Shown here piece after piece: positions 48,313-62,306 of a stretch of DNA of 64,000 bases. The notes under the pieces are model-generated. The model was given only the letters and a program-made list of their open reading frames with translations. It did no database searches and was not told where the DNA came from. The DNA comes from Pedobacter sp. (lineage in GTDB: Bacteria > Desulfobacterota > Desulfuromonadia > Desulfuromonadales > Syntrophotaleaceae): the NCBI GenBank assembly GCA_050253415.1, contig JBFWJC010000006.1, positions 32,001 through 96,000 on the forward strand, written 5' to 3'. The first letter of the stretch is position 1. Every line of letters starts with the position of its first letter. Position numbers and translations under genes: made by a program.

Positions 48313-51300
48313 TTAAAGAGTAATCCAACCATCCAGCAATGGAAAATAGAGTGCCGTGCGCATCACGCGCGAAGGTTCCATGGCCTGCATCAGGCGAACA
48401 TACAGTTCCAGTTGACCCTGATAAATCCGAGCCTGTTGCCGTATGAATGTATCTTCGTCCGATCCTTTACTATCGCCGGTTTTATAATCCACAATCCAGC
48501 GGACCCCCTTATCATCGAGAAAAGTGCGATCGATCTCCGCATGCACCACACGCCCATCGACGACCCCGGAGAGGGAAAGTTCGCAGGCAGCCTCCTGATG
48601 CGCGGAAAGGATCCACCTGCCCCGCCGGCTTTGCAAGGTTTTGGATAGCGCCAGCACCACCTTTTCGGCAGCCGCAGGCAAGCGGTCTTCGGCAATGCCC
48701 ATGCGACCCAGACGATGAATCATCATCTGACCCTCGTTTTCGGCACGTTCTACCGGCCAAAGATCAAGGCCCTCCGCGGCAATGCGTTCAAGATAAGCAT
48801 GTACCAGACTGCCGATATGACGCCCCTCTTCCGTTTCGGGCATGAGGGTCGACGCCACCGTATGTTGGGCCGACGATGACGGACGCAATACATCCACCGA
48901 TACCGCCTCGTAGCCGATGGGCATGACGGGAAGTTGCCATTCAACAGGCAGCCGCCGCAACCCGGCAAAAGTTTTCACTTCATCTGCCGAGCCGGGTGAC
49001 AGAGGGTCAAGCCCTGCAAAAGAATCTTCAACAGCCGGCCATAATTTTTCCAGAAAGGAACTCCTTGCCGGTCGGAACACTCCGTCCGCGGCCGGCCTTG
49101 CATAGCCAAGCAAATGGAGTCGTTTTTTGGCCCGCGTGGCTGCAACATACAGAACCCTGGCGATTTCCAGATCGTTCTTCTGTTTTTCGATGCGTCCGAT
49201 AGCATCGTAAATGGCATCACGACCCGGACCGCCCAAAGGCGCCAGAGGCGCTAACAACAGCCCGGTATCAGGCAGTTCAAGCCAACGCATCAGAGGCGCG
49301 TCTTCGGCGCGGGGTCGCCTGCCGAGTCCGGGTAAAATCACGGTGTCAAACTCCAGCCCCTTGGCTTTGTGAATGGTCATAACCTGCAGGGAGTCGTCGG
49401 CACCGGGATCAGGGGCCGCATAGAGCTTGCCAAGTTTGACTTCAAGTTCCTCCAGAGGCAACAGATCGCCGCCATGGTCGAGTTGTTGCAGCAGACCGAA
49501 GACCGCCTCGGCATCAACCAGGCCGGCATCGTCCAGGCACCCCGGCCCTCCCAGGGCCAACCATGCCCCCTCTACCAGTGATCTCAGTGGAGTTCTGCCC
49601 CGCTGGGTTGCAACCTGGTTCAAAACCGCTGTAACACGCGCCAGACGCTTGCGGCCATCCTCGGAGAGAGGGTGCAGGCGTTTGGGTTGACGCAGCAATT
49701 CTGCCATCGTGACATCGGGCATTTCGCCGCAAAGGATATGAAGATCATCCAGGCTCAATCCACACCAGGGAGCGCGCAGTACCGCCAGGTGCGCAATACG
49801 GTCGGAGGGATGGAGCAACGCCCGGGTCAGAGCCAGCAGGTCTCGTGCCACAGGCCGGCCGGCAAGAGGATCGATCTCCTGGGCGCGAAACCGCAACCCC
49901 GCCTCGTGAAAAGCACGCAGAATCTCCTGAAGATGACTGCGCGCCCGCACCAGTACGGCAACGCTCCCCTGGGGATCGTCCCGCCGAGCCTGCCGAACAA
50001 GTTCCAGAACCTGCAAAGCCTCGGCACGGTCGTCGCGGTTCGCCAGGGCATGGCAGGTAACGGCCTGGATATCCAAAGATTCCCGGGCAGCGACCGAAGG
50101 GGCATACGTCACGCCTCCCAGGGCTTCGTCCTCGCGATCAGGGAACAAACCCGGGAATACGCCATTGACCCAATCGACGATACCCGCCTGGGATCGGAAA
50201 TTGGTGGTTAGATACAGCGGTTCGAGATGCAATTGATCGATGCCGTGATGGCGCGCTTGAAGATACAGGCCGACCTCGGCCTCACGAAACCGGTAAATGG
50301 ACTGCATCGGGTCACCGACCAGAAACAGACTGCGACCGTCACCCTGCTGCCAACCGGAGGTCAGTTTCTTCAGCAACAGGAACTGCCCCCAGGAAGTATC
50401 CTGGAACTCGTCCACCAGAATATGCCGGATGCGACTGTCAAGATGCAGCAGCAGGTCGGTCGGCGCATCGACCTCGCCAAGCGCCCGGCCGGCCGCCAGG
50501 GCAACCTCGACAAAATCGCTTTGGCCACCCTCTTTGAACACCAGCCACAATTCCGCCACGGCCCGTGGCAACAGGGTTGTCAGAGCCTGCAAAACCTGCC
50601 ATTGCTCAGGTTCATAAACCACCGGTGGCAAGGCACGAACCTCGGCAAACAGTTCGGCAACCGCATCGTGTTGCCCGAGTTCCTCCAGCAGCTGCCCCAT
50701 ATCTTGCTTCATGGAGGCGAACGGTTCCTGCTTACCGGGGGGGAATCCGCAATTTTTATCCAGACGTTTGCGCAACGTACCGCCGCCTGTCAGCAACAGA
50801 TCGGCCAGACCGCGCCAGATTGCCACCTCATCCGCCGATATCAAGGGAAAACGGTCTACCCCGGCAAGAGCCGTAATGCCGTTTTCGATACCCTGTGACT
50901 GCAGATTGGCCGCGGCCAGGGCGCCCAGACGGATCATGCGGTCTTTGTGCTCCGGACTCAATATCCGATCCACTTGAACCAGCACACCTTCAACCAGACA
51001 GCGCAGCCCCCCTTCAAGAATCAGGCGCTGCTGTTCGGCCTGCTGCCCAAAAAGGTGACGCAACCAGTGATCGCGCCGGCCGAGCATGCCGACCAGCAGA
51101 TCGCGCAGCCGCTCCATGCGATTGTCGAGATGCGCAAGCAGCAGGCAGGCCGCTTCACCATAAGTACTTTGGCTATCGGCCAGCGCCAGCACCCTTTCGG
51201 CGGCCTGTCGATAAAGATCGCCTGCGTCCTCTACAATACTGGCCTGGGCGCCGAATCGCGACTGCCAGGGCATGCGCCGGACCAGGGAAGCGCAAAAGCT

Positions 51301-51669
51301 GTCGATAGTCTGTACAGCCAATCGCACGGGATTTTCCAGCAAACGCCAATCGTAACGCGTATCGTTGTCCAACACCTGCCTGGCGAGTCGCCAGGTGGTG
51401 CGGGCATGTTCCGCTTCCGGTTCAGGCCCGCGAGCTGCCTCCAGTGCACGCACCAGGCGATCACGCATTTCACCGGCGGCTTTACGCGTAAAGGTAATGG
51501 CCAGCACCTCCTCGGGGCGCTCGACCACTCCCAGCAAAGCCAGCATTCTCTGAATGAGAAGTTCGGTCTTGCCGCTGCCCGCGGGAGCCTGCACGATAAA
51601 AGTGCCGGATGGATCAAGCGCCCGCCGCCTGGCATCGTAATCGGGTGGCTGTGTCAGACGCAGTTTCAT
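48313..51669 (-). CDS. addA: AddA/RecB-like UvrD helicase with PD-(D/E)xK nuclease
   Basis: APAGSGKT, VDEFQD, VGDPMQSIYRFR, TIHKAKGLEF, YVAATRA, C-terminal IDR…VDYKTG. Confidence 0.88.
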   Translation of the reverse strand: MKLRLTQPPDYDARRRALDPSGTFIVQAPAGSGKTELLIQRMLALLGVVERPEEVLAITFTRKAAGEMRDRLVRALEAARGPEPEAEHARTTWRLARQVLDNDTRYDWRLLENPVRLAVQTIDSFCASLVRRMPWQSRFGAQASIVEDAGDLYRQAAERVLALADSQSTYGEAACLLLAHLDNRMERLRDLLVGMLGRRDHWLRHLFGQQAEQQRLILEGGLRCLVEGVLVQVDRILSPEHKDRMIRLGALAAANLQSQGIENGITALAGVDRFPLISADEVAIWRGLADLLLTGGGTLRKRLDKNCGFPPGKQEPFASMKQDMGQLLEELGQHDAVAELFAEVRALPPVVYEPEQWQVLQALTTLLPRAVAELWLVFKEGGQSDFVEVALAAGRALGEVDAPTDLLLHLDSRIRHILVDEFQDTSWGQFLLLKKLTSGWQQGDGRSLFLVGDPMQSIYRFREAEVGLYLQARHHGIDQLHLEPLYLTTNFRSQAGIVDWVNGVFPGLFPDREDEALGGVTYAPSVAARESLDIQAVTCHALANRDDRAEALQVLELVRQARRDDPQGSVAVLVRARSHLQEILRAFHEAGLRFRAQEIDPLAGRPVARDLLALTRALLHPSDRIAHLAVLRAPWCGLSLDDLHILCGEMPDVTMAELLRQPKRLHPLSEDGRKRLARVTAVLNQVATQRGRTPLRSLVEGAWLALGGPGCLDDAGLVDAEAVFGLLQQLDHGGDLLPLEELEVKLGKLYAAPDPGADDSLQVMTIHKAKGLEFDTVILPGLGRRPRAEDAPLMRWLELPDTGLLLAPLAPLGGPGRDAIYDAIGRIEKQKNDLEIARVLYVAATRAKKRLHLLGYARPAADGVFRPARSSFLEKLWPAVEDSFAGLDPLSPGSADEVKTFAGLRRLPVEWQLPVMPIGYEAVSVDVLRPSSSAQHTVASTLMPETEEGRHIGSLVHAYLERIAAEGLDLWPVERAENEGQMMIHRLGRMGIAEDRLPAAAEKVVLALSKTLQSRRGRWILSAHQEAACELSLSGVVDGRVVHAEIDRTFLDDKGVRWIVDYKTGDSKGSDEDTFIRQQARIYQGQLELYVRLMQAMEPSRVMRTALYFPLLDGWITL

Positions 51670-54353
51670 GACAAATCCTCATCATCGAGTAAAACATCCT
51701 GGTCGGCAATACGACACAGGGAATGCAAATCACAGCGATCGCATGCCTTGCTGGCATTGAGCGGGTCGACGCCAGCTTTGCCGTTGGAAAAATCGCTGCC
51801 GAGTTGTTGCAAAGTACTGCGCCAGGAATGCAGCAGTTCATCCCAATCGGCGATGGCGGTCCCCTCCAATTGCCGATGGCCGGCTGCCCCGGCAACTCCC
51901 GGCAGCAGCTCGCTTTCTCGGCCGAGTCCGACGAAGCTGCAATCTCCCCGTCTGACCTTGGCAAAAGCCACCGCAGCCAGATCGGAGCCATGGCGGCCAA
52001 GGGTGTACAGGGGCAACTGCGGTTCCACCGGGCGATCGCCCAGCCAGTCGGCCACCGTCGCAAGACCGGTTTTGTAATCAATAATGACCTGCGAACCGTC
52101 TTCCAGACGATCGATACGGTCGATGCGGGTCTGCAACGTCAAGGGTCCGAAATTTTCGCGATGCCATGCCTCCAGAGTCTCGATATTGAATGGTGGACGC
52201 CCCGCCTCGACTTCGAGCCACTCCCGCAGCAAATCCGCTAAGCGTTGACGTTCCAATAGTCTCTGGCTGGTCGACAACGGCACCCTCCGTTGTGCCGCAA
52301 ATTCATCCAACGCCTGATCGCTATACTTCAGAATGAGCGCGCACAGGCCGTCTGAATCCAGCTCGGATAATTGGCGCCAACCGCCTATTTCCAACCAGAA
52401 CAGTTCCAGGATGCGATGCACCAGCGATCCCCGATCGAGCCCGTCGAGCCCAAGGCTGGCTGTGGCCAGCCCCCAGGCCCCGAGTCGATGGCGGGCAAAG
52501 GCACGAAACGGACAGAGCGCCTGGTCTTTAAGCAGTGCGGTGCCACCCGACACCCTGGTCCCATCCGGAATGGGCGGTCCCTGGAGATCGGTCAAGCTTT
52601 CAAGACCTTCAACCGAATCCCGAATCAGCAAAGTGGGCTTGCGGCTGTCAGCCAAAACCGGCGCAATCGGCGGCAGATGTTGAACCAGAGGGCTCGGCTG
52701 ACGTTCCCGGCCATCCATGTGTTCCGGCCAGCTGACGACCAGCGTCAGGGCACAACTCAATAAGCGCTGCGACAGTTTGTGCGCGAAATCGAGTTCCCTG
52801 GCTGCATCGGCATGGGGCATTTTAAGCTTGCGCTGCAACTCTGGCGGGATAAAAGGATTAGGACGGGCAGGCGCCGGTAGCGCCTCTTCATGGACGCCCA
52901 GCAGCCACAGGGCATCGAACTGCATCCCGGCCGCTTCCAGAGCCCCCAATACCTGGACGCGCCCTTCGGAACCTTCCGGTTGGAAAATCTCCTCAGCAGC
53001 CAATCGTCGCAGTAATGCAAGAGCCTCACCGCGCTGGATCGGCTCGGATACCGTATCCAGGCAGGCCATGGACGCAAGCAACTCTTTCCAGGCTGTAAAC
53101 ACCTGATATTCGCGACTGGTAAGGCTGCGATCTCCCGGCCATTGACAAGCATCCAGCACCTGGGCGAAATGACGCGACCAGGCACCGGGTAGACGCGGCT
53201 TGGTTTCTTTAAGCAAATTCCCAATGATTTCGAGTTGCCGCGCAAAAATATCGGAGCGTCCGAGTTTTTTCTTGAACCCCTGCTCGGCAAAATGCAGCAC
53301 CTGCTTAAGAGGCAGTTCCGTCATGCGCAGGTTGCGCAGTTCCCGATCTAAAATCGACCGCGAGTATTGTTCGGACAGATGGCCCCAGATAAACGGCGAA
53401 CGCAGTAAATAACTCAAACTGTTGAGAGATACGGTTCGGCCAACGGACAATAGTTCGAATGCGGCGGTTACCATGCCCTCTTCAATCAAGCGGGTACCAA
53501 GGGACAAGTTAAAAGCCTTTTCGGATGCGGATCCCGGCAACAAGGCTGACGGCGACAACTCTTCCCGGAAAATACGTTGTAAACGCTCCTGGTAGGCCGC
53601 CATATCCACCGCGACGATGCCGATGCGACCGAGGTTACCTTCGAGAAGATGCCTGGTCCAACGTGCACAGCAGCGCACCTCCTCGTCGGGATCGGCATAC
53701 CCGACGCGCCCCATCGATGGAGACACACACGCCGGCGGCATCCAACGGTGGATGGCCACACCGCGCTGACTCAAGGTACGGCATAAAGCTTCAACCGTGG
53801 GTGTCAGATCGTCGAACCCCGCCAGCCACAGATTGCCGGGCAGGGAAACATTCGCTTGCTCTAACGCTTGCACAAGCCGCGAGGACAAAAGCGCAGGGTC
53901 TTCCCAACCGCCCGACAGGCATAAGCCCTGCCAACGTTGACGCCAGCGCAAGAAAGTCCGGTGGTCTTCTCCCCCTTCTTCAGGGGTAAAAGCAGTACCG
54001 TATTCGCACAGTAACTGATGAGCCTTGGCAGCCTGTTTGGCGGCATCGGGAATCCGCATGAGGCCCTCTCCCGAAGCGTTCAGATCGGCTTCGACAGCAC
54101 GCTCCCAAAGCCGCAGAACCTGTGCCTGGTCAAGGGTCCTGTCATCAAGTCGGAGGCTTCCCACCAACTGACGTTGCCAGGCCGAGAATGAATATACCGC
54201 CGGAGATGTCCATACCGCGCGCCCCTGACTCTGTTGCCGCCGGTCATAACCCTGGCGCAGATAGCGGGCCAGGCGCTTGTTAACGGTCAGCACCAGGTCC
54301 CCCTGCTCGAGGCGCCCCAATAAATCCTCCAGGGGAATGGCCTCTATTTGCAT
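51666..54353 (-). CDS. addB: AddB-like protein with Fe-S PD-(D/E)xK nuclease
   Basis: CPF…RIDRID…IIDYKTG…QL..Y…CDRC…C iron-staple nuclease; ATGA overlap with addA; start MQIEAIP inferred. Confidence 0.82.
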   Translation of the reverse strand: MQIEAIPLEDLLGRLEQGDLVLTVNKRLARYLRQGYDRRQQSQGRAVWTSPAVYSFSAWQRQLVGSLRLDDRTLDQAQVLRLWERAVEADLNASGEGLMRIPDAAKQAAKAHQLLCEYGTAFTPEEGGEDHRTFLRWRQRWQGLCLSGGWEDPALLSSRLVQALEQANVSLPGNLWLAGFDDLTPTVEALCRTLSQRGVAIHRWMPPACVSPSMGRVGYADPDEEVRCCARWTRHLLEGNLGRIGIVAVDMAAYQERLQRIFREELSPSALLPGSASEKAFNLSLGTRLIEEGMVTAAFELLSVGRTVSLNSLSYLLRSPFIWGHLSEQYSRSILDRELRNLRMTELPLKQVLHFAEQGFKKKLGRSDIFARQLEIIGNLLKETKPRLPGAWSRHFAQVLDACQWPGDRSLTSREYQVFTAWKELLASMACLDTVSEPIQRGEALALLRRLAAEEIFQPEGSEGRVQVLGALEAAGMQFDALWLLGVHEEALPAPARPNPFIPPELQRKLKMPHADAARELDFAHKLSQRLLSCALTLVVSWPEHMDGRERQPSPLVQHLPPIAPVLADSRKPTLLIRDSVEGLESLTDLQGPPIPDGTRVSGGTALLKDQALCPFRAFARHRLGAWGLATASLGLDGLDRGSLVHRILELFWLEIGGWRQLSELDSDGLCALILKYSDQALDEFAAQRRVPLSTSQRLLERQRLADLLREWLEVEAGRPPFNIETLEAWHRENFGPLTLQTRIDRIDRLEDGSQVIIDYKTGLATVADWLGDRPVEPQLPLYTLGRHGSDLAAVAFAKVRRGDCSFVGLGRESELLPGVAGAAGHRQLEGTAIADWDELLHSWRSTLQQLGSDFSNGKAGVDPLNASKACDRCDLHSLCRIADQDVLLDDEDLS

Positions 54354-54727
54354 GATTTGACTCCCGTCGGGCGGAAAAATATCCGCCAGAGCAGGTAGAC
54401 AAGACCTGCACCAAAAGTGTTGGCGACCGCATCCCCGAACTGAGCGACACGCTGACCGGTTAAGGCCTGCGCCCCCTCGAGAAGCACGCCATAAACGATC
54501 GCCAGCCCCAGAGCCCGACTCCAGGCGCGCGCCGCGCCCCAAAACGGCGCCAAAGCCCAGCCGCCAAGTGCGGTCAGGAAGGCATAAGCGAGAGCATGTT
54601 GCGCCTTATCCCAGGAAAGAACGTCCCGGATGATATGCGGAGGGCGGGGAATCACAGACAGCACGAAGATAAGCATGGCAAAAGCGACAAACAACACCAG
54701 ACGCACCGATGCAGGAAACTTGATCAT
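54344..54727 (-). CDS. VanZ family membrane protein
   Basis: DKAQHALAY, EGAQ…R…GDAVAN motifs, about 4 TM. Confidence 0.8.
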   Translation of the reverse strand: MIKFPASVRLVLFVAFAMLIFVLSVIPRPPHIIRDVLSWDKAQHALAYAFLTALGGWALAPFWGAARAWSRALGLAIVYGVLLEGAQALTGQRVAQFGDAVANTFGAGLVYLLWRIFFRPTGVKSCK

Positions 54728-54966
54728 AAAAGCCCTTAGGGAGGAATGATCCAGGGCAGTACCTGGAAAAGACAAATCAATGATTGCCAAAAAACATATT
54801 TTGAGCTCGGGAATATCGGATACTTCGAAGTAGGTTCAAGTTACCCTATTTTCCAGTTTAAAAAAAGCTAAGAAGTCCGAAAATTCGTTGAAATTTACCC
54901 TTGCAGGATGGCGAATATGTGTTTCCATTGAAAGCGTAGTGATACCTATCACAGGAGGATCAAACC

Positions 54967-55497
54967 ATGACCAGTACAAAATACTTCGGAAAAATCATCC
55001 TATTGCTCGCCCTTGGATTTTTTGTCATCCCGGCAACCAGTCAGGCAAACAGAATGCATAAGGGTAGCGGCTACCACATGATGAACTCAGGCATGATGTC
55101 GCAACTCACAGACGAGGAACAAAAAACCGTCATGGACCTGATGCAAAAATACCATGGCCCCATGATGGAGCTCAAGAAACAACTCTATGCCAAACGTGCT
55201 GACCTCAATGCAGTGATGGCCCAGGAAAAATTCGATGGCAAAAAAGCCCGCGCACTGGGCAAAGAAATTTCCGCACTCCAAAGCAAATTCATGGATCAAC
55301 ACATGGAAATGTTTATCGAGATGCGTGAAAAAGGCGTCTCCTACTACGGCACCTGCATGTCGGGCGGCACAATGGGCCGCGGCATGATGGGGCCGGGAAT
55401 GATGATGGATGATGGCATGATGGGAACCGGAACAATGATGGACGGCAGGAATACAGACATGATGAATCAGAACATGATGCCGTCCAAGCAGGAATAA
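54967..55497 (+). CDS. Periplasmic Spy/CpxP/ZraP-like protein, Met-rich
   Basis: Signal peptide, LTDEEQ helix hairpin, Met/Gly-rich termini; AGGAGG SD. Confidence 0.78.
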   Translation: MTSTKYFGKIILLLALGFFVIPATSQANRMHKGSGYHMMNSGMMSQLTDEEQKTVMDLMQKYHGPMMELKKQLYAKRADLNAVMAQEKFDGKKARALGKEISALQSKFMDQHMEMFIEMREKGVSYYGTCMSGGTMGRGMMGPGMMMDDGMMGTGTMMDGRNTDMMNQNMMPSKQE

Positions 55498-55544
55498 ATC
55501 CCGTCAACAGCTTTTCCCTTAACAAACGGTGATTATGAATTGCC

Positions 55545-55579
55545 AGGCGGCATGTCGAATCTTCTGACATGCCGCTTTT
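55545..55579 (+). terminator. Intrinsic terminator
   Basis: GCGGCATGTC/GACATGCCGC stem plus TTTT. Confidence 0.75.
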
Positions 55580-55745
55580 CTATCCCCTTCCCCTCTATCA
55601 ATTTTCAGACCTTTTTGAATGCCCTCTACACAATCCACGAAAGTCATTGTCGGGGAAAAAGTCCGGTGGTTTGACTTTGCGAATTTGACCACTAATCTTT
55701 AATCATGCAGCCCCCTGATAAATCCACAAAAAGAAAGGAGCAAAG

Positions 55746-55988
55746 ATGCATGGTATCGGTTTTATGGATGGCTGGAGCATGATGAGCCCCGGCATGTGGA
55801 TTTTCATGCTGTTGTTCTGGGGTTTGGTCATCGTCGGGATTGTGGGTATTATCCGCTGGCTTGCCGGTCGAGACCATCGCCAGAATAGATCGGAAACAGA
55901 AACGCCGCTGGAAATTCTTCAAAAACGATACGCGCGCGGGGAAATCGAACGCGAAGAGTACCAGCGGATGAAAAAAGACCTTGAATAA
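55746..55988 (+). CDS. SHOCT domain membrane protein
   Basis: Met/Gly N-terminus, single TM, LEILQKRYARGEIEREEY. Confidence 0.88.
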   Translation: MHGIGFMDGWSMMSPGMWIFMLLFWGLVIVGIVGIIRWLAGRDHRQNRSETETPLEILQKRYARGEIEREEYQRMKKDLE

Positions 55989-56238
55989 CCTCTGTCCATC
56001 ATCGGAAAAATTCCTGGCGTAATGCTGCCTTCCAAAACCAGGTCAGGAATAAAATGATCACCCGTTTAGGGCATTTTTTCGCCGATGCCTTTATGTCTCT
56101 TTCGCGGGAGCATGGGACTACGTACGCCCCTTTGCGCCTGATCGGATTCATCGAGCTTGGCATAAAGACATAGCTTGCAAACGAAGTTCCCAAGTTTAGG
56201 CTCAATACATAACCCGAACTTCAGCCGGAGCCATCCTG

Positions 56239-58638
56239 ATGTGCGCAAAAACCATCTTTATAATGCCTATTATTTTCCTTTTTTTAACATCCACCGGACT
56301 GGCTGCCATCCGGGAATATCACCTTACAGTGGACCGGAAACAGATCGTCATTCAGGGCAAACAGGCCCCAGGGATGACGATCAACGGCCAACTACCCGGG
56401 CCGACTCTGCGCTTCAACATAGGCGATATCGCCCGCATTCACGTCACCAACAAAATGGATGTGCCTACCTCCATCCACTGGCACGGCGTACTTGTACCGC
56501 CGGGGATGGACGGTGTCCCCTTTGTCACTCAGCCCCCTATCGCTCCGGACACCACCTTCACCTACGAGTATCCCATTCGCCAGACCGGTACCTACTGGTA
56601 CCATTCCCACGTCGAGCTGCAGGAACAAAGCGGTATGTACGGTGCAATCGTCATTACCGGCGAAGAATCGTCCCTGCAGGTAGATAGAGACGAGGTGGTG
56701 CTTCTTTCCGACTGGACCACCGATGACCCCCACGAGGTGTTGCGGACCCTGAAACGAGGCAGCGAGTGGTTCGCCCTTGAAAAGGGCTCGGGTCAGAGCA
56801 TTTTCGGCGCCGCCAAAACCAACAGCCTGGGAGACTATTTCTATCGGGAATTACAGCGCATGCCACCGATGGATATCGCCGATGTGGCTTACGACTACTT
56901 TCTGGCCAACGGCACCCCGCACATGACGATTCCCGCCAAACCTGGTGAAAAGGTGCGGCTGCGTGTCATCGATGGCTCGGCTACCAGCTACTTTCATCTG
57001 CAGTACGCCGGAGGTCCCATGACCATCGTCAGCGCCGACGGACAACAGGTGGAAGCCGTCGAGCAAAACCGGTTTCTCATTGCGGTGGCAGAAACCTACG
57101 ATGTATTGGTGACCGTGCCCGCCGACGGCTCTTACGAATTCCGGGCGACCGCCCACGACGGCTCCGGCCGCGCCTCCGTCTGGATCGGCACAGGCACCAA
57201 ACACCCGGCGCCGGATATCCCTAAACCAAACCTGTACCGGGCCATGCACCGCCCAGCCCTTGCGTCACTCTTTTCCCTGACCCCGGCCGGCACCATGGGC
57301 ATACCCGACACCCTGGTGGAACAAGGCCGTTTCGACGCCCCCGGCATGATGGGGACGATGAATATGCACGAGATGGGGCACGCTCCCCCCGGACATGAGA
57401 TGGACCATATGCGACCTGAGCAGCAGATGATGAGACCAGGCCGCGAAGCTCACCCCCCTTCCCCATCCGAGCCGAGCGGCATGAGCGACATGAACCTATC
57501 TCATAAACATCATGCCGTCCCTTCTACCACGATCGGTTCCGAATCGGCCGGCCCGGACCTTGAACCTGCTACCCTGACTGCAAACCGGTCCGCCCGACCC
57601 TACGGGACCCGGTTCGGCTTTCTGCAGACGGACATAGCCGCCCGGAAGGCTCTGGCCATCGAAGGCGGCGAACAGCGTCCCGGGACGCCCTATGCCACCT
57701 TGCGCTCCACCAGACCGAGTACCCTGCCGGCGAATCGACCGATCCGGGAGGTCCGTCTGACCCTTGACGGCGACATGGAGCGGTATGTCTGGTTGTTGAA
57801 CAACCAGCCGTTGTCCGAATCGGACCACATCCTGATCAAAGAGGGTGAAATCGTCCGCTTCATCATGATCAACCGCACCATGATGCATCATCCGATGCAC
57901 CTGCACGGGCATTTCTTTCGGGTGATCAACGGCCAGGGGGACAACGCGCCCCTCAAGCACACGGTTGACGTGGCCCCCATGTCGACCACCGTTATCGAAT
58001 TTTACGGCAATGAAGTTGGCGACTGGTTCTTCCATTGCCATCTGCTCTATCACATGAAAAGCGGCATGGCGAACTTCGTCCATTACCAGGAATTCCAACC
58101 CGATCCACAGGTGTTGGCGGTACGCCCCCGTCTCTATCACGATCCATGGTACGCTTGGGCCAGGGCGGACCTGCTCAGCAACATGACCGAGGGCAAAATA
58201 TCCCTAAGCAACACCCGGATCATGCTGGACGGATCGTGGGAAGTAGGCTGGCAGAAGGTTGACGAAACCGATTGGGAGGCAATGGTCTCTGCAGGCTGGT
58301 ACCTGAACCGTTTCACTTCCTTCTTTGCTGGCGTGGATGCCCTGGGAGAAGGCTCGCATGCGGAAGATTTGCGAGGTCTGATGGGGTTGAAATATCTTCT
58401 GCCACTGAATATTGACCTGTTCGCCTGGGTGGACACGGAGGCCGGAGCCCGGGTTATGCTGGAAAAGGATCTGGAACTGACCCCCAGAATGAGCCTTCAC
58501 GGCGAAGTGGAGTATGACACCCACGATCAATGGGAAGGCGCTGCTGCCCTGCATTACCTGCTGACCAAAGATCTTTCCCTGATTGCCACGTGGCATTCCG
58601 AATTCGGTTATGGCGGCGGAATTTCTTTACGTTTTTAA
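56239..58638 (+). CDS. Multicopper oxidase (CopA-like) with C-terminal beta-barrel-like domain
   Basis: HWHG, WYHSH, HPMHLHGH, HCHLLYHM copper motifs; Met/His linker; amphipathic beta C-terminus ending in Phe. Confidence 0.9.
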   Translation: MCAKTIFIMPIIFLFLTSTGLAAIREYHLTVDRKQIVIQGKQAPGMTINGQLPGPTLRFNIGDIARIHVTNKMDVPTSIHWHGVLVPPGMDGVPFVTQPPIAPDTTFTYEYPIRQTGTYWYHSHVELQEQSGMYGAIVITGEESSLQVDRDEVVLLSDWTTDDPHEVLRTLKRGSEWFALEKGSGQSIFGAAKTNSLGDYFYRELQRMPPMDIADVAYDYFLANGTPHMTIPAKPGEKVRLRVIDGSATSYFHLQYAGGPMTIVSADGQQVEAVEQNRFLIAVAETYDVLVTVPADGSYEFRATAHDGSGRASVWIGTGTKHPAPDIPKPNLYRAMHRPALASLFSLTPAGTMGIPDTLVEQGRFDAPGMMGTMNMHEMGHAPPGHEMDHMRPEQQMMRPGREAHPPSPSEPSGMSDMNLSHKHHAVPSTTIGSESAGPDLEPATLTANRSARPYGTRFGFLQTDIAARKALAIEGGEQRPGTPYATLRSTRPSTLPANRPIREVRLTLDGDMERYVWLLNNQPLSESDHILIKEGEIVRFIMINRTMMHHPMHLHGHFFRVINGQGDNAPLKHTVDVAPMSTTVIEFYGNEVGDWFFHCHLLYHMKSGMANFVHYQEFQPDPQVLAVRPRLYHDPWYAWARADLLSNMTEGKISLSNTRIMLDGSWEVGWQKVDETDWEAMVSAGWYLNRFTSFFAGVDALGEGSHAEDLRGLMGLKYLLPLNIDLFAWVDTEAGARVMLEKDLELTPRMSLHGEVEYDTHDQWEGAAALHYLLTKDLSLIATWHSEFGYGGGISLRF

Positions 58639-58782
58639 TCGGTTATTTTATGGTTACCCTTGATGGGCCATATATTCTACTCAGAAGGAGTATCCGGTTT
58701 TTAATCAAGAGTCGAAAAGATTTTCTGTACCGGCAGTAGAAAAAAAAGTATTCGAGCCATTAAATGGACAGGCGCGCACGAA

Positions 58783-59424
58783 ATGCAGGAAAAAAATCAC
58801 TGGGAACAGATTTACGCAACCAGGCCGGCAGAGAAGCTTGGCTGGTATGCGCCCCATCTGCAGATTTCTTTAAATTGGATCAAGGGGCTTTGTTTGGCCG
58901 ATAATGCGCCGATCATCGACATTGGTGGCGGTGTATCCACCTTGGTCGACGACCTGGTGGACTCAGGCCATCAAGTAATCACAGTCCTCGACATATCTGA
59001 TAAAGCTCTGGACTCGGTCAAAGTCCGATTAGGCAAAAAGGCAGAGATGATAAGGTGGATAAGTGCCGACATCACCTCGGTTGATATGCCCAGACACTCT
59101 TATGAATTGTGGCATGATCGAGCCGTCTTCCACTTTTTGATGGAGCCTGAACGGCAACAGAAATATCGGGAAAACCTTCTGAAAGCGTTGAAACCAGGCG
59201 GGCACGCGATTATCGGAACCTTTGCACAGGAAGCCCCTGCCCGTTGCAGTGGCCTGCCGGTACAGCGCTACAGCCCGGAACAGTTAAAAGACACGCTAGG
59301 TCCTGAGTTTGACTTAAAGCGTCATCGCCAAGTGCTTCATATTACGCCGGGAGGAGTAGAGCAAATGTATCTTTATTGCCTTTTCCGGAAATCTGGCCAA
59401 CAAGGTCAAGGTACGAATCGCTGA
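58783..59424 (+). CDS. Class I SAM-dependent methyltransferase
   Basis: IIDIGGG, VLDIS, WHDRAVFHFL, CSGL. Confidence 0.88.
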   Translation: MQEKNHWEQIYATRPAEKLGWYAPHLQISLNWIKGLCLADNAPIIDIGGGVSTLVDDLVDSGHQVITVLDISDKALDSVKVRLGKKAEMIRWISADITSVDMPRHSYELWHDRAVFHFLMEPERQQKYRENLLKALKPGGHAIIGTFAQEAPARCSGLPVQRYSPEQLKDTLGPEFDLKRHRQVLHITPGGVEQMYLYCLFRKSGQQGQGTNR

Positions 59425-59545
59425 TTGCGCACGGTTTAATCCTTGCCTCGTGCCATCCGGAAAATATGGTTCAAAACAACCTCGAAACTGGAGAAAATTA
59501 ATCCCGATAAGTTACGACACCTCTTTTTGGAGGGAACGATAGACA

Positions 59546-60637
59546 ATGCCAAAAGATCCAATCTGTCAGATGGAGGTCTCAAAAGAAACAGCCATAAGCG
59601 TCCAATGCGACGGCCAGCGCTTTTACTTCTGCTCAGAGGGATGTCGCAAAAAGTTTTTAGAAGATCACTCCTGCAAGAGGCATGCGGGGCCATTCGACCT
59701 GATCATCATCGGTGGAGGGCCGGCTGGACTAACAGCAGCAACCTTCGCCGCCACCTTGAAGATGAAGGCATTCTTGATTGCCAGGGACCTGGGCGGTCAG
59801 GCGGTCGACAGCACCAAGATTGAAAACTATATGGGGTTCGACTTCATCACCGGGCCAGAGCTGATCGCCCGTTTTCAAAATCAGTTACTTCATTCCCACT
59901 TTGTCGATCACCTGATGGATGAGGTAACCCGAATCATTCCCGAAAAAGATGCGTTCCGCGTCGTCACTCGCGGACAGGATACTTTCCTGACTAAAGCTGT
60001 CCTGGTTACTACCGGCATGACCCGAAAGAAGCTTGGCATCCCCGGGGAAGAGGAGCTTCAAAGGCGTGGAGTTTTCTACGGGAATATCCCCGATTTCTCA
60101 TTTGCTGAGGGCGAGGATGTTGCCGTTATCGGAGGTGGTAACAGCGCTCTGCAGATCGTAGAAAATCTTCAAACTCTCGCCCGCAGCATCCACCTCGTTT
60201 CCACATCCCGCCTGCGAGCCGACCAGGCAACCATTGAGAGAGTGAAGAGGTTGTCAGGCCTGACAGTATACGAAGGGTACAGGACGTTGAAATTCGGCGG
60301 AGAAAATTATCTGACCACGGTAGAGATAGAAAACATGTCGGGGGCGAGATCCCTCTGCCTTTCCGTCCGGGGGGCCTTTGTCGCAATTGGACATGAACCC
60401 AACTCGGATTTGGTGGCGGATCTTGTGACCCTGAATGAAAAAGAAGAAATCGCCATAGGGCCTGATTGTAGCACCTCATGTCCTGGACTTTTTGCCGCAG
60501 GCGATGTCACCGACGCTTTTGGTAAGCGAATTATCATTGCTTCCGGCGAGGGGGCCAAGGCCGCCCTTGCAGCGAAGGCGTATCTTTTAAAAAGAGCTGG
60601 CCGGCAAAGGGAGGAAACATCAGGTGCAGGGAATTGA
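59546..60637 (+). CDS. YHS domain-thioredoxin reductase-like flavoprotein (no catalytic CxxC)
   Basis: KDPICQM…YFCSEGC YHS domain; GGGPAG, IENY, GGGNSA, FAAGDVT; YGNIPD where TrxR has YCxxCD. Confidence 0.85.
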   Translation: MPKDPICQMEVSKETAISVQCDGQRFYFCSEGCRKKFLEDHSCKRHAGPFDLIIIGGGPAGLTAATFAATLKMKAFLIARDLGGQAVDSTKIENYMGFDFITGPELIARFQNQLLHSHFVDHLMDEVTRIIPEKDAFRVVTRGQDTFLTKAVLVTTGMTRKKLGIPGEEELQRRGVFYGNIPDFSFAEGEDVAVIGGGNSALQIVENLQTLARSIHLVSTSRLRADQATIERVKRLSGLTVYEGYRTLKFGGENYLTTVEIENMSGARSLCLSVRGAFVAIGHEPNSDLVADLVTLNEKEEIAIGPDCSTSCPGLFAAGDVTDAFGKRIIIASGEGAKAALAAKAYLLKRAGRQREETSGAGN

Positions 60638-60875
60638 CGCGCTATTATAAGAATTCGATAAGTGTCAGCGGAGAAAGTTGGTAACAACGCGTCAAATTTT
60701 CACAGTTCATACTATAATGAACCCAACCGCTCCTTTCAATGTTTGGCTCAATGATCGCTGCCCTGACCGGCCCCTACTCCAGTTCAATTCATAATAGCCA
60801 AAAGGGGAAACCGTATAACTTTGACGATTAATTGAAATATGTCGTCCCTCATCTAAATTGGAGTTACTGGCTACC

Positions 60876-61424
60876 ATGAGAATTCTTGCAAAACAGCCGT
60901 CTGGCTATCCCTGGTATCTCCGCCCCTTCTTCTGGAATCAAAAGAGGAAATACGGTCAGGTGCTGAAACCCGGCCTGCTGTGGGGACGAAGGCCGGGGCT
61001 GTTCATGGCCGTTGCCGCCCTCTACGGTGTGCTGGACCGGAAACGCTCACCCCTCGATCCGGCTCTGAGAGCCCTCGTCACCGTGCGGGTCTCGCAGATT
61101 AACTGGTGCCGGTTCTGTGTGGACATCAATTCCGCCCTGCTGGCCAAACGGACCGGCTCAACCGCCAAGGTCGAGGCACTGGAAAACTGGCGGGACTCCG
61201 AACTGTTCGACGATCGGGAAAAGGCGGTGCTAACCTATGCCGAGGCCATGACCGACTCTCAACAACAGGTCGATGACGACATGGTCGCCCGATTGCGCAC
61301 CTTTTTTGATGAGGATGGAATCGTGGAATTGACCGGCCTGGTCGCCTTTCAGAACCTGTCGAGCAAGTTCAATGCCGCGTTGGACGTGGAACCCCAAGGG
61401 TTTTGCAAAATACCTCCCCTCTGA
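60876..61424 (+). CDS. Carboxymuconolactone decarboxylase/AhpD family protein
   Basis: RVSQINWCRFCVD, FDDREKAVL, IVELT…NLSSKFN. Confidence 0.85.
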   Translation: MRILAKQPSGYPWYLRPFFWNQKRKYGQVLKPGLLWGRRPGLFMAVAALYGVLDRKRSPLDPALRALVTVRVSQINWCRFCVDINSALLAKRTGSTAKVEALENWRDSELFDDREKAVLTYAEAMTDSQQQVDDDMVARLRTFFDEDGIVELTGLVAFQNLSSKFNAALDVEPQGFCKIPPL

Positions 61425-61541
61425 GGATTTGCACTTCCCCTCAAGGTTCCGTTTTCTATCTCGCACAGCAGTCCTGGGAACCTTCCATCAATATCGAGAC
61501 CACATAAGGAAACCATCGAGTTGGCCCAGGTTAGTGCACCA

Positions 61542-62306
61542 TTACCGTCTGTGGTGACCCTTGAAGTCGACAACTATCGCCGTGCAATCGTCTTCCGGAG
61601 AATCCTTTCCGGTGAATTTTGTCAGCGTCCGAAATAGTTTATCCAGAAACTCCAGGTTATTCTGCTCCGATTGCAATAACATCCGTTCCAGCCGTTCCTC
61701 ACCGAAGAACTCTCCATCTTTATTGGTTGCCTCGATGATTCCATCAGTGTAAAGCAGAAGCCGGTCCTCCTCCTGCAGGGAAATGCTTGCCGTCGCTATC
61801 TCGGGATCAGGAAAATACCCTAAAGGACGGGAGGTCACCGGCAAGGTGAAAAGGAAGTCTCCACGACGGACCAAAGGGGCCGGATGACCTGCATTGACAT
61901 AAGTCATCCGCTGAGTCTCGGGATTGATGATTCCGTAAAACAACATCGTAGAAAAAAACTGGTCGAATCTTCTGGAGCGCGAGGTAAAGGTCAGGAGAAA
62001 ATTGTTGATCTGGCGGACGATGTCCTGACAGGGGCAAGGGTTCCTGAAGGCATGGTGGATAAAGCCATAGAGCAGCGCCATAATCAGCGAGGCATGAACA
62101 CCCCGGCCCGTGACGTCCCCGAGAAAGATGATCTGACAGGTATCGGACATGGTCAGAAAATCGAAATAGTCCCCGCCTACCCCATGAGCCATCCGGTTTT
62201 GGAAACCGATTTCCCCCCACTCGCAAACCGGTGAGGCTTTGGGAAAAAGGATTTTCTGCACATGGGCAGCGAGGTCAAGATCCCGGGCGCTGTCATTTTC
62301 TTCCAT
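61542..62306 (-). CDS. PP2C/SpoIIE family phosphatase (no sensor domain)
   Basis: VGGDYFD, GDVTG, NAGHP, YTDGIIE, DDCT. Confidence 0.9.
   Translation of the reverse strand: MEENDSARDLDLAAHVQKILFPKASPVCEWGEIGFQNRMAHGVGGDYFDFLTMSDTCQIIFLGDVTGRGVHASLIMALLYGFIHHAFRNPCPCQDIVRQINNFLLTFTSRSRRFDQFFSTMLFYGIINPETQRMTYVNAGHPAPLVRRGDFLFTLPVTSRPLGYFPDPEIATASISLQEEDRLLLYTDGIIEATNKDGEFFGEERLERMLLQSEQNNLEFLDKLFRTLTKFTGKDSPEDDCTAIVVDFKGHHRR

Follow-up and report, generated by a model that had tools for sequence, protein, structure and literature searches.

The 64,000-nt stretch of contig JBFWJC010000006.1 (contig 6) analyzed here, which is referred to as the window, encodes a protein of 363 amino acids in which a YHS/TRASH metal-binding domain is fused to a flavoprotein core of the thioredoxin reductase (TrxR) and AhpF type that has lost its catalytic CxxC motif. 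This protein probably helps anaerobic bacteria to handle copper, as judged from its domains and from the copper-export genes beside it, and the link to copper is strongly supported by the context of the gene in related genomes. We tentatively favor a role as a reductase or handler of YHS-bound copper that would be driven by reduced nicotinamide adenine dinucleotide (phosphate), NAD(P)H, and would serve Cu(I) export. Known parts are joined here in a combination that is clearly under selection and has not been described, and its biological setting is well supported; no paper describing a fusion of YHS and flavoprotein was found in the full-text literature, subscription-only literature not being covered, and the matches included reviews on selenoproteins in which an unrelated YHS selenoprotein is listed. 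The features of the gene and its product are the following, with residue numbers referring to the 363-residue protein and FAD standing for flavin adenine dinucleotide:

59546..60637, + strand: open reading frame of 363 codons with an ATG start, YHS domain and CxxC-less flavoprotein of the AhpF/TrxR type (Pfam, NCBIfam, HMMER)
59529..59534, + strand: Shine-Dalgarno-like GGAGGG, 11 nt 5' of the ATG (read in the sequence)
59546..59689, + strand: YHS/TRASH domain and short linker (residues 1-48), with C21 and C43 in addition to the tetrad D4, C7, C29 and C33 (Pfam)
59711..59728, + strand: FAD dinucleotide motif GGGPAG, residues 56-61 (sequence)
59894-59911 and 60017-60019: S117-H118...D121-H122 and M158, (near-)invariant in the family and differing in CxxC-bearing relatives
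60080..60091, + strand: G179-N-I-P182 at the CxxC position of TrxR and AhpF, the family consensus being G-N-I-Q (alignment)
60131..60148, + strand: NAD(P)H motif GGGNSA, residues 196-201 (sequence)
60197..60223, + strand: V-S-T-S-R-L-R-A-D, residues 218-226, replacing the HRRxxxR motif of NADPH specificity and ending in an AhpF-like '..AD' (alignment)
60491..60505, + strand: second FAD motif FAAGD, residues 316-320, with the invariant C308 in P-D-C-S-T-S on its 5' side (sequence, family alignment)

On its sequence, the protein is a member of both the TrxR structural superfamily and the YHS/TRASH family. Pfam places YHS (PF04945) at residues 3-40 with 37.0 bits, above the gathering cut-off of 30.3, and Pyr_redox_2 at residues 50-329 (E 5.8e-31), the linker between the YHS domain and the core comprising only ~10 residues. 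The best sequence matches in the PDB are TrxR of M. tuberculosis (2a87, E 4e-46) and AhpF (1hyu, E 2.4e-39), and TrxR and AhpF structures are also the top Foldseek matches of the model predicted with AlphaFold2, whose full-length version has a predicted local distance difference test (pLDDT) of 69.4 and a predicted template-modeling score of 0.55. The protein shares with TrxB and AhpF the two-domain FAD/NAD(P)H fold and the motifs GxGxxG, GxGxxA and FAAGD, and its C-terminal half, which ends in a short tail, resembles AhpF in the segment IIIASGEGAKA and in the '..AD' motif. However, the HMMER alignment with 2a87 sets 'rgvfygnipd' over 'rgvsscatcd' and 'vst.srlrad' over 'vhrrdefras', so that both CxxC and HRR are replaced. 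The preliminary description of this DNA had proposed a YHS domain joined to a TrxR fold devoid of both catalytic Cys residues, with intact FAD and NAD(P)H motifs, GNIP at nt 60080-60091 in place of CxxC and STSRLR in place of HRR, all of which is borne out by Pfam, by the sequence itself and by the 2a87 alignment.

The scores for established enzymes are correspondingly low, reaching 233.4 bits for TrxR (TIGR01292, curated cut-off 343.45) and 221.4 bits for AhpF (TIGR03140, curated cut-off 502.9), and an identity as either enzyme was rejected because the defining CxxC is absent. Moreover, the N-terminus is a YHS segment of 48 residues and not the double thioredoxin fold of AhpF, and the core departs from both enzymes in H118, H122, M158, R160, R173 and R328 (Q in TrxRs), as well as in the missing CxxC and HRRxxxR. 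The homologues carry the names 'alkyl hydroperoxide reductase subunit F', 'FAD-dependent oxidoreductase' and 'NADH dehydrogenase' in their sources, the first of which is wrong for this family. The genome itself keeps two canonical TrxRs with CATC and HRR; thus, the fused protein is not the housekeeping TrxR.

The loss of CxxC is a trait of the whole family and not of this copy alone. A word-indexed search provided the best 120 matches, at 58-96% identity, for an alignment of 121 sequences; for 114 of these matches YHS had been annotated in advance, and the remaining six are called from an internal Met. None of the 121 sequences has a Cys within the ten-residue segment that surrounds the former CxxC, where the consensus reads R-G-V-F-Y-G-N-I-Q-D, while D183, the acid beside it, is D or E in all of them. 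At greater distance, an exhaustive HMMER search of 1.84 billion representatives of 50% clusters returned 1,104 proteins at E <= 1e-30, and the query was aligned with 135 of the best 150, each of at least 280 residues, to give 136 sequences. CxxC is kept in 105 of these 136 and, among the relatives listed, in every one with a Grx-like (CPxC) N-terminal fusion, whereas it is missing from all seven full-length YHS-fused proteins (the query and P0121, P0122, P0123, P0124, P0126 and P0129, at 41-58% identity). In a quick IQ-TREE phylogeny (LG+G4) of 147 core domains, in which the family was represented by 18 of 127 sequences after thinning of near-duplicates, a single branch separates the 18 YHS-fused rows from all others, with a Shimodaira-Hasegawa-like approximate likelihood ratio support of 92. 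Under midpoint rooting, their sister group consists of eight stand-alone, CxxC-less proteins and, therefore, the loss of CxxC may predate the YHS fusion. Conservation in the family is high, with 31 invariant columns across 119 sequences down to 41% identity that include all cofactor motifs (G56/G58/P59, G83/G84, G196-N199 and G319). The preliminary description had considered that close homologues might retain CxxC, which would make this copy simply degenerate; since the close homologues lack it (none of 121 sequences, and none of the seven full-length fusions), the architecture is a selected one and not the result of decay.

The YHS/TRASH domain is conserved in a similar manner. D4, C7, C29 and C33 are invariant in all 50 YHS segments taken from the genome loci, and in the 121-sequence alignment C29 and C33 occur in every sequence and C7 in each of the 113 that have an N-terminus. 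C21 and C43 are each found in 113 of the 121 sequences and together in 109, which brings the conserved Cys residues to five within 43 residues, with C43 lying in the flexible linker. Of the three conserved YHS Cys residues and the HSC..H linker given in the preliminary description, C7, C29 and C33 hold, although the conserved Cys residues number five and the linker histidines H41 and H46 are poorly kept (H in 4/121, with position 46 mostly P). Cu-ATPases, the M. phlei cyclase and ribosomal protein L24e possess YHS/TRASH domains with the same signature of an Asp and three Cys residues (DPxC...FCSxxC). This set was proposed by Linder as the Cu2+ site of the Cu-activated adenylyl cyclase of M. 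phlei (PMC4626032). The invariance of the whole tetrad, including the non-thiol D4, points to metal binding. A separate AlphaFold2 model of residues 1-50 (pLDDT 81) shows a beta-hairpin and a helix, with L24e as its best Foldseek match (E 0.09, probability 0.97) and the YHS region of toluene/phenol hydroxylase also near; a segment of 50 residues can be expected to give weak scores such as these, yet they agree with the sequence matches. The YHS domain is 38-54% identical to those of the ATPases and kinases encoded nearby in related genomes, which differ from it in lacking the C21/C43 pair and in not being fused to a flavoprotein. A complex prediction with the core dimer, two FAD molecules and the YHS domain as partner gave a score of 0.01 and a mark of 0.32 and counts neither for nor against any interaction.

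The connection with copper arises from the gene neighborhoods. Among species-representative genomes, 153 stretches contain a relative and 80 loci were fetched; counts over 81 loci refer to these and a 12-kb slice of the window. Neighboring open reading frames were called with a crude longest-frame script and clustered by BLASTP, the gene under study being masked by a longer spurious frame in 5/81 loci, and related metagenome-assembled genomes among the loci represent non-independent samples. A P-type ATPase lies within 6 kb of the gene in 52/81 loci, and in 31 of the 37 loci of at least 12 kb. In contrast, only one of 80 metagenome loci around ordinary TrxR/AhpF-like genes, processed in the same way, and none of seven loci of the stand-alone CxxC-less sister clade includes an ATPase. 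Thus, the copper association belongs to the YHS-fused clade. CPC, YN(x)4P and MxxSS, which we take to be the Cu(I)/Ag(I) signature of P1B-1 pumps, occur together in 29 of the 58 neighboring ATPases; five have CPH instead, and most of the remainder are truncated reading frames or other P-type pumps. In 44/49 loci the nearest ATPase gene has the orientation of the gene under study, and in 7 the two are direct neighbors (<150 bp); two 'adjacent' cases with large negative gaps (L026 and L056) are artefacts. Multicopper oxidases are encoded in 7/81 loci, and further recurrent neighbors are ICMT/PEMT-like methyltransferases and DUF5676, SHOCT, YtkA-like, TolC-like, CsoR-like and HMA-like proteins. 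The tabulation of neighbors, which was suggested in the preliminary description, strongly supports the copper connection that it had proposed, as do the multicopper oxidase encoded upstream of the gene in the window and in the closest relative and the Met-rich secreted and CsoR-like proteins among the neighbors.

The family is carried mainly by Nitrospirota, which account for 48 of the locus labels; most others are labeled Thermodesulfobacteriota or 'Deltaproteobacteria', and Stahlbacteria, Bipolaricaulota and Spirochaetota are represented by single metagenome-assembled genomes. In its own order the gene was found in 3 of the 201 genomes searched, and in none of six other genomes of the genus, so that it is a patchy accessory gene. 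A tblastn search of 72,556 plasmids gave no match at E 1e-40, so that this collection provides no sign of a plasmid location.

How such a protein might work can be outlined from these observations, from which we infer copper as the ligand, a flow of electrons from FAD to YHS and a hand-over to the ATPase. The protein would be a working cytoplasmic flavoprotein of AhpF/TrxR descent in which electrons from NAD(P)H pass to FAD; with CxxC gone, an electron relay through a dithiol is impossible. The YHS/TRASH domain would hold copper through D4, C7, C29 and C33, while C21 and C43 would serve as further ligands or as a redox pair. FADH2 would act on this site, either converting Cu(II) to Cu(I) or maintaining the ligating thiols in their reduced state. 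The Cu(I)-exporting P1B-type ATPase encoded nearby would then receive the metal on its own N-terminal YHS domain, which is homologous. HMA chaperones exchange metal with the HMA domains of CopA, which offers a model, by analogy, for a hand-over between YHS domains. With regard to the chemistry, CxxC-less TrxR-like proteins have been reported as NAD(P)H-dependent Fe(III) reductases (PMC4142287, citing Bester 2010).

Several points weigh against this scheme. In the cytoplasm, thiols are generally considered to reduce Cu(II) spontaneously, so that it is not evident why an enzyme would be needed. In the absence of a core Cys near the lost CxxC, an inner-sphere mechanism in the style of MerA is unavailable and the flavin electrons would have to go directly to the YHS site, and the linker between the two is short. 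C21 and C43 are absent from 12 of 121 relatives and from several divergent members, among which P0123 and P0126 have only the three TRASH Cys residues. No ATPase lies within 6 kb in 29/81 loci, although many of those contigs are short. In addition, a role of YHS has been shown experimentally only as a sensor, and YHS domains elsewhere bind Zn or Cd, or nothing (PMC4626032). The more far-reaching proposal, in which the whole family would be a dedicated cytoplasmic NAD(P)H:copper oxidoreductase-chaperone, derived from TrxR and similar to MerA, with FAD reducing the copper on a tethered five-Cys YHS site, or the thiols that bind it, and with Cu(I) loaded onto the YHS domain of P1B-type ATPases, is possible but rather doubtful.

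Two known systems offer parallels to a copper reductase and handler of this kind. MerA with its tethered NmerA also combines an N-terminal metal domain, a short tether and an NAD(P)H/FAD oxidoreductase within a metal-resistance island; however, its core is of the glutathione reductase type with CxxxxC by the flavin and a C-terminal Cys pair, and its metal domain has the HMA fold. An identity as MerA was rejected (TIGR02053, 51.7 bits against a cut-off of 454.45) in view of the TrxR-type core and the YHS N-domain, and the likeness is one of analogy only. CopZ of the archaeon Archaeoglobus fulgidus is alike in concept, as a redox module joined to a copper-binding module reduces Cu(II) there and supplies an ATPase of CopA type, but it consists of a [2Fe-2S]/Zn domain and an HMA domain, without flavin.

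An unlikely but serious alternative is that the YHS domain is a copper sensor that switches the flavoenzyme on or off, the true substrate being something other than the metal. Such a substrate could be a quinone, ferredoxin or flavodoxin, O2 or a small disulfide, or the enzyme could signal to the histidine kinases whose genes often follow. In agreement with this, the sole experimentally studied YHS domain is a Cu2+-activated sensor module fused to a cyclase (PMC4626032). The same islands contain YHS fused to histidine kinases (L001:8129-8998) and to ATPase N-termini, and histidine kinases are encoded in 23/81 loci and directly downstream of the gene in 6. Moreover, cyclase genes of the HAMP+Guanylate_cyc type immediately precede the flavoprotein gene in L037 and L042 and are close to it in L053, and the short linker suits allosteric coupling. 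However, a sensor leaves the pairing of CxxC loss with YHS gain unexplained and does not account for a C21/C43 pair that is confined to the YHS domain of the flavoprotein, being absent from neighboring sensors and ATPases; the neighborhoods yielded no conserved candidate for a substrate protein. The kinases deserve mention in their own right, as short soluble proteins composed of YHS, HisKA and HATPase_c adjoin the flavoprotein gene at L001:8129-8998, L020:8159-9040 and L033:3367-4206 and are candidate cytoplasmic copper sensors.

The genes that surround the flavoprotein gene in the window itself are the following:

54967..55497, + strand: Met-rich Metal_resist (PF13801) protein (Pfam)
55746..55988, + strand: small membrane protein with a SHOCT domain, of a cluster (c6) found at most four genes from the flavoprotein gene in 7 loci including the window
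56239..58638, + strand: multicopper oxidase of CopA type, TIGR01480 with 403 bits (cut-off 479) (NCBIfam, Pfam)
58783..59424, + strand: class I S-adenosylmethionine-dependent methyltransferase, 122 bp upstream of the flavoprotein gene (Pfam)
60858..61424, + strand: AhpD/CMD-like protein with a CRFC (W-C-R-F-C) motif (Pfam, NCBIfam)

The 12-kb slice of the window includes no ATPase. An ATPase with YHS and HMBD domains and the CPC, YN and MxxSS motifs is encoded on contig 6 at 98490-100793 (- strand), 5.9 kb downstream of the flavoprotein gene and beyond the window end. It belongs to a module at 98490-103400 (- strand; L168:5891-10861), ~2.5-7.4 kb past the window end, that consists of DUF5676, ICMT/PEMT-like, ATPase, YtkA-like and resistance-nodulation-division (RND) genes, and the set of DUF5676, ICMT-like and ATPase genes is common to many Nitrospirota loci. 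In the closest relative, 88% identical (G030), the multicopper oxidase gene is immediately upstream and a DUF3047 gene follows, without an AhpD-like or a methyltransferase gene. A scan for promoters and terminators over 54500-61600 gave counts not above those of shuffled sequences.

The AhpD-like gene is relevant to a distinctly improbable explanation, in which the YHS Cys residues would form a mobile dithiol/disulfide center that replaces CxxC in the way of the N-terminal domain of AhpF. The protein would then be a disulfide reductase with, for example, copper-oxidized Cys residues in the metal site of the ATPase or the AhpD-like protein as its target. Dithiol relays are usual in AhpF and TrxR, from whose lineage the core stems, and the C-terminal half of the protein is AhpF-like; D183 is kept as D or E in 121/121 sequences, and C21 and C43 occur together in 109/121, C43 being placed in the flexible linker. 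On the other hand, the TRASH tetrad is invariant as a whole, with the non-thiol D4 included, which points to a metal site, the core has no Cys to take electrons from FAD (0/121), and P0123 and P0126 possess three TRASH Cys residues only. Service to the adjacent AhpD-like protein, as envisaged in the preliminary description, is not supported, since such a gene stands beside a family member in just 1/81 loci, that of the window, and is absent from the locus of the 88%-identical relative; a partnership with it was rejected on this count. The best NCBIfam match of the AhpD/CMD-like protein itself (60858-61424) is 'YciW-related (seleno)protein', with 138.8 bits, below the cut-off of 310.

Next in order, and likewise improbable, the YHS domain might hold Fe or Zn and not Cu, either as a rubredoxin-like Fe(Cys)4 site or small Fe-S relay or as a structural Zn ribbon. 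The enzyme would be a fused NAD(P)H:iron-center reductase in the first case and would resemble a ferredoxin/flavodoxin-NAD(P) reductase with a Zn ribbon in the second. Five Cys residues within 43 would suit such a center, and the YHS region of phenol hydroxylase is the next-best match in both sequence and fold. The L24e TRASH fold binds Cd or Zn in ribosome crystals (PMC4626032). CxxC-less enzymes of the TrxR type include ferredoxin-NADP+ reductases (FNRs), which are matched in the PDB with E 3e-22 to 2e-12. These FNRs and the TrxR-like ferric reductase of Thermus scotoductus share with the present protein a TrxR fold without redox disulfide, but they have no metal-binding N-terminal domain. 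TrxR-type FNRs also possess a C-terminal extension that covers the flavin. They are distant kin only, as the core is far nearer TrxR and AhpF (E 4e-46 and 2.4e-39), and the YHS domain is 38-54% identical to that of the neighboring Cu-type ATPases; moreover, an Fe or Zn site would leave the copper-specific association of the family (52/81 against 1/80 loci) unexplained. Finally, a decaying, non-functional TrxR/AhpF paralogue, which would agree with the scores under the curated TrxR and AhpF cut-offs and with the lost catalytic Cys residues, is highly improbable in view of the 31 invariant columns in 119 sequences down to 41% identity, the occurrence of the family in 153 stretches of species-representative genomes and the open frame with its Shine-Dalgarno-like sequence, and a degenerate pseudogene was ruled out by the conservation across the family.

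A comparison of the core between the YHS-fused family and the 105 CxxC-bearing relatives revealed residues peculiar to the family, namely T70 (R in 104 of the 105), H118, R160, R173, F177 and Q203, together with H122 and M158, which occur in 100% of the family. The position of G179 is occupied by C, and that of R328 by Q, in all 105 relatives. His and Met are typical copper ligands. A second metal site on the core, formed from the region of H118, H122 and M158, is conceivable from the sequence, but it is offered as an idea only.

Other observations concern the genes near the family and their products. Secreted proteins that are extremely rich in Met, with MxxM and MMM runs (clusters c2, c5 and c9), match no Pfam or NCBIfam model and are often encoded directly before the ATPase gene; examples are L056:8011-8448, L015:7160-7759 and L057:6412-6792, and these proteins are likely periplasmic Cu(I) binders. 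Five loci (L049, L052, L055, L059 and L078) share an upstream context of an HI0933-like flavoprotein, a DEAD-box helicase and Tex, and a downstream order of GalT-like, geranylgeranyl-reductase-like and EgtD-like histidine methyltransferase genes, then DUF5676 and the ATPase, in which the EgtD-like gene hints at a link to a thiol-histidine of the ergothioneine type. The multicopper oxidase of the window has a C-terminal extension of ~185 residues (58081-58635) that ends in ...GGGISLRF and finds only TamB as its best Pfam match (E 0.022), and the oxidase of the 88%-identical relative is of similar length, with 808 residues (L084:7274-9700). This extension may be a fused beta-barrel or an anchor domain; an identity as CopB was rejected because it has no Pfam match. 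Just upstream of the oxidase of the same relative, a WYL/WCX regulator, a DncV-like/SMODS nucleotidyltransferase and a ThiF/E1-like protein are encoded (L084:2929-6716), a set that looks like a defense cluster of the cyclic-oligonucleotide-based anti-phage signaling type, and ArsA and ArsD genes are present further downstream in that genome. Right before the copper genes of the window, at 48313-54542 (- strand), a UvrD-type helicase with a PD-(D/E)XK nuclease (1117 residues) and a PD-(D/E)XK protein (957 residues) form a pair that looks like AddAB/RexAB.

To our knowledge, accounts of bacterial copper efflux comprise chaperones, P1B ATPases, RND pumps and periplasmic oxidases, and a dedicated cytoplasmic redox enzyme does not figure in them. 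The family considered here comprises a conserved flavoprotein that bears the YHS domain of the pumps; its genes stand next to those for the pumps in Nitrospirota, Thermodesulfobacteriota and a few genomes of the Desulfuromonadales type. It also represents a case in which the AhpF/TrxR scaffold has been rebuilt after loss of its dithiol. If the proposed function is correct, an enzymatic redox step would be added to bacterial copper efflux, or else a new copper-controlled redox output would be recognized. Should the protein prove to be an oxidoreductase-chaperone, it would constitute a second, independently evolved detoxification design that combines a metal domain with a flavoprotein. Moreover, the family would provide the poorly understood YHS domain with an assayable partner, whose flavin absorbance can be followed directly.

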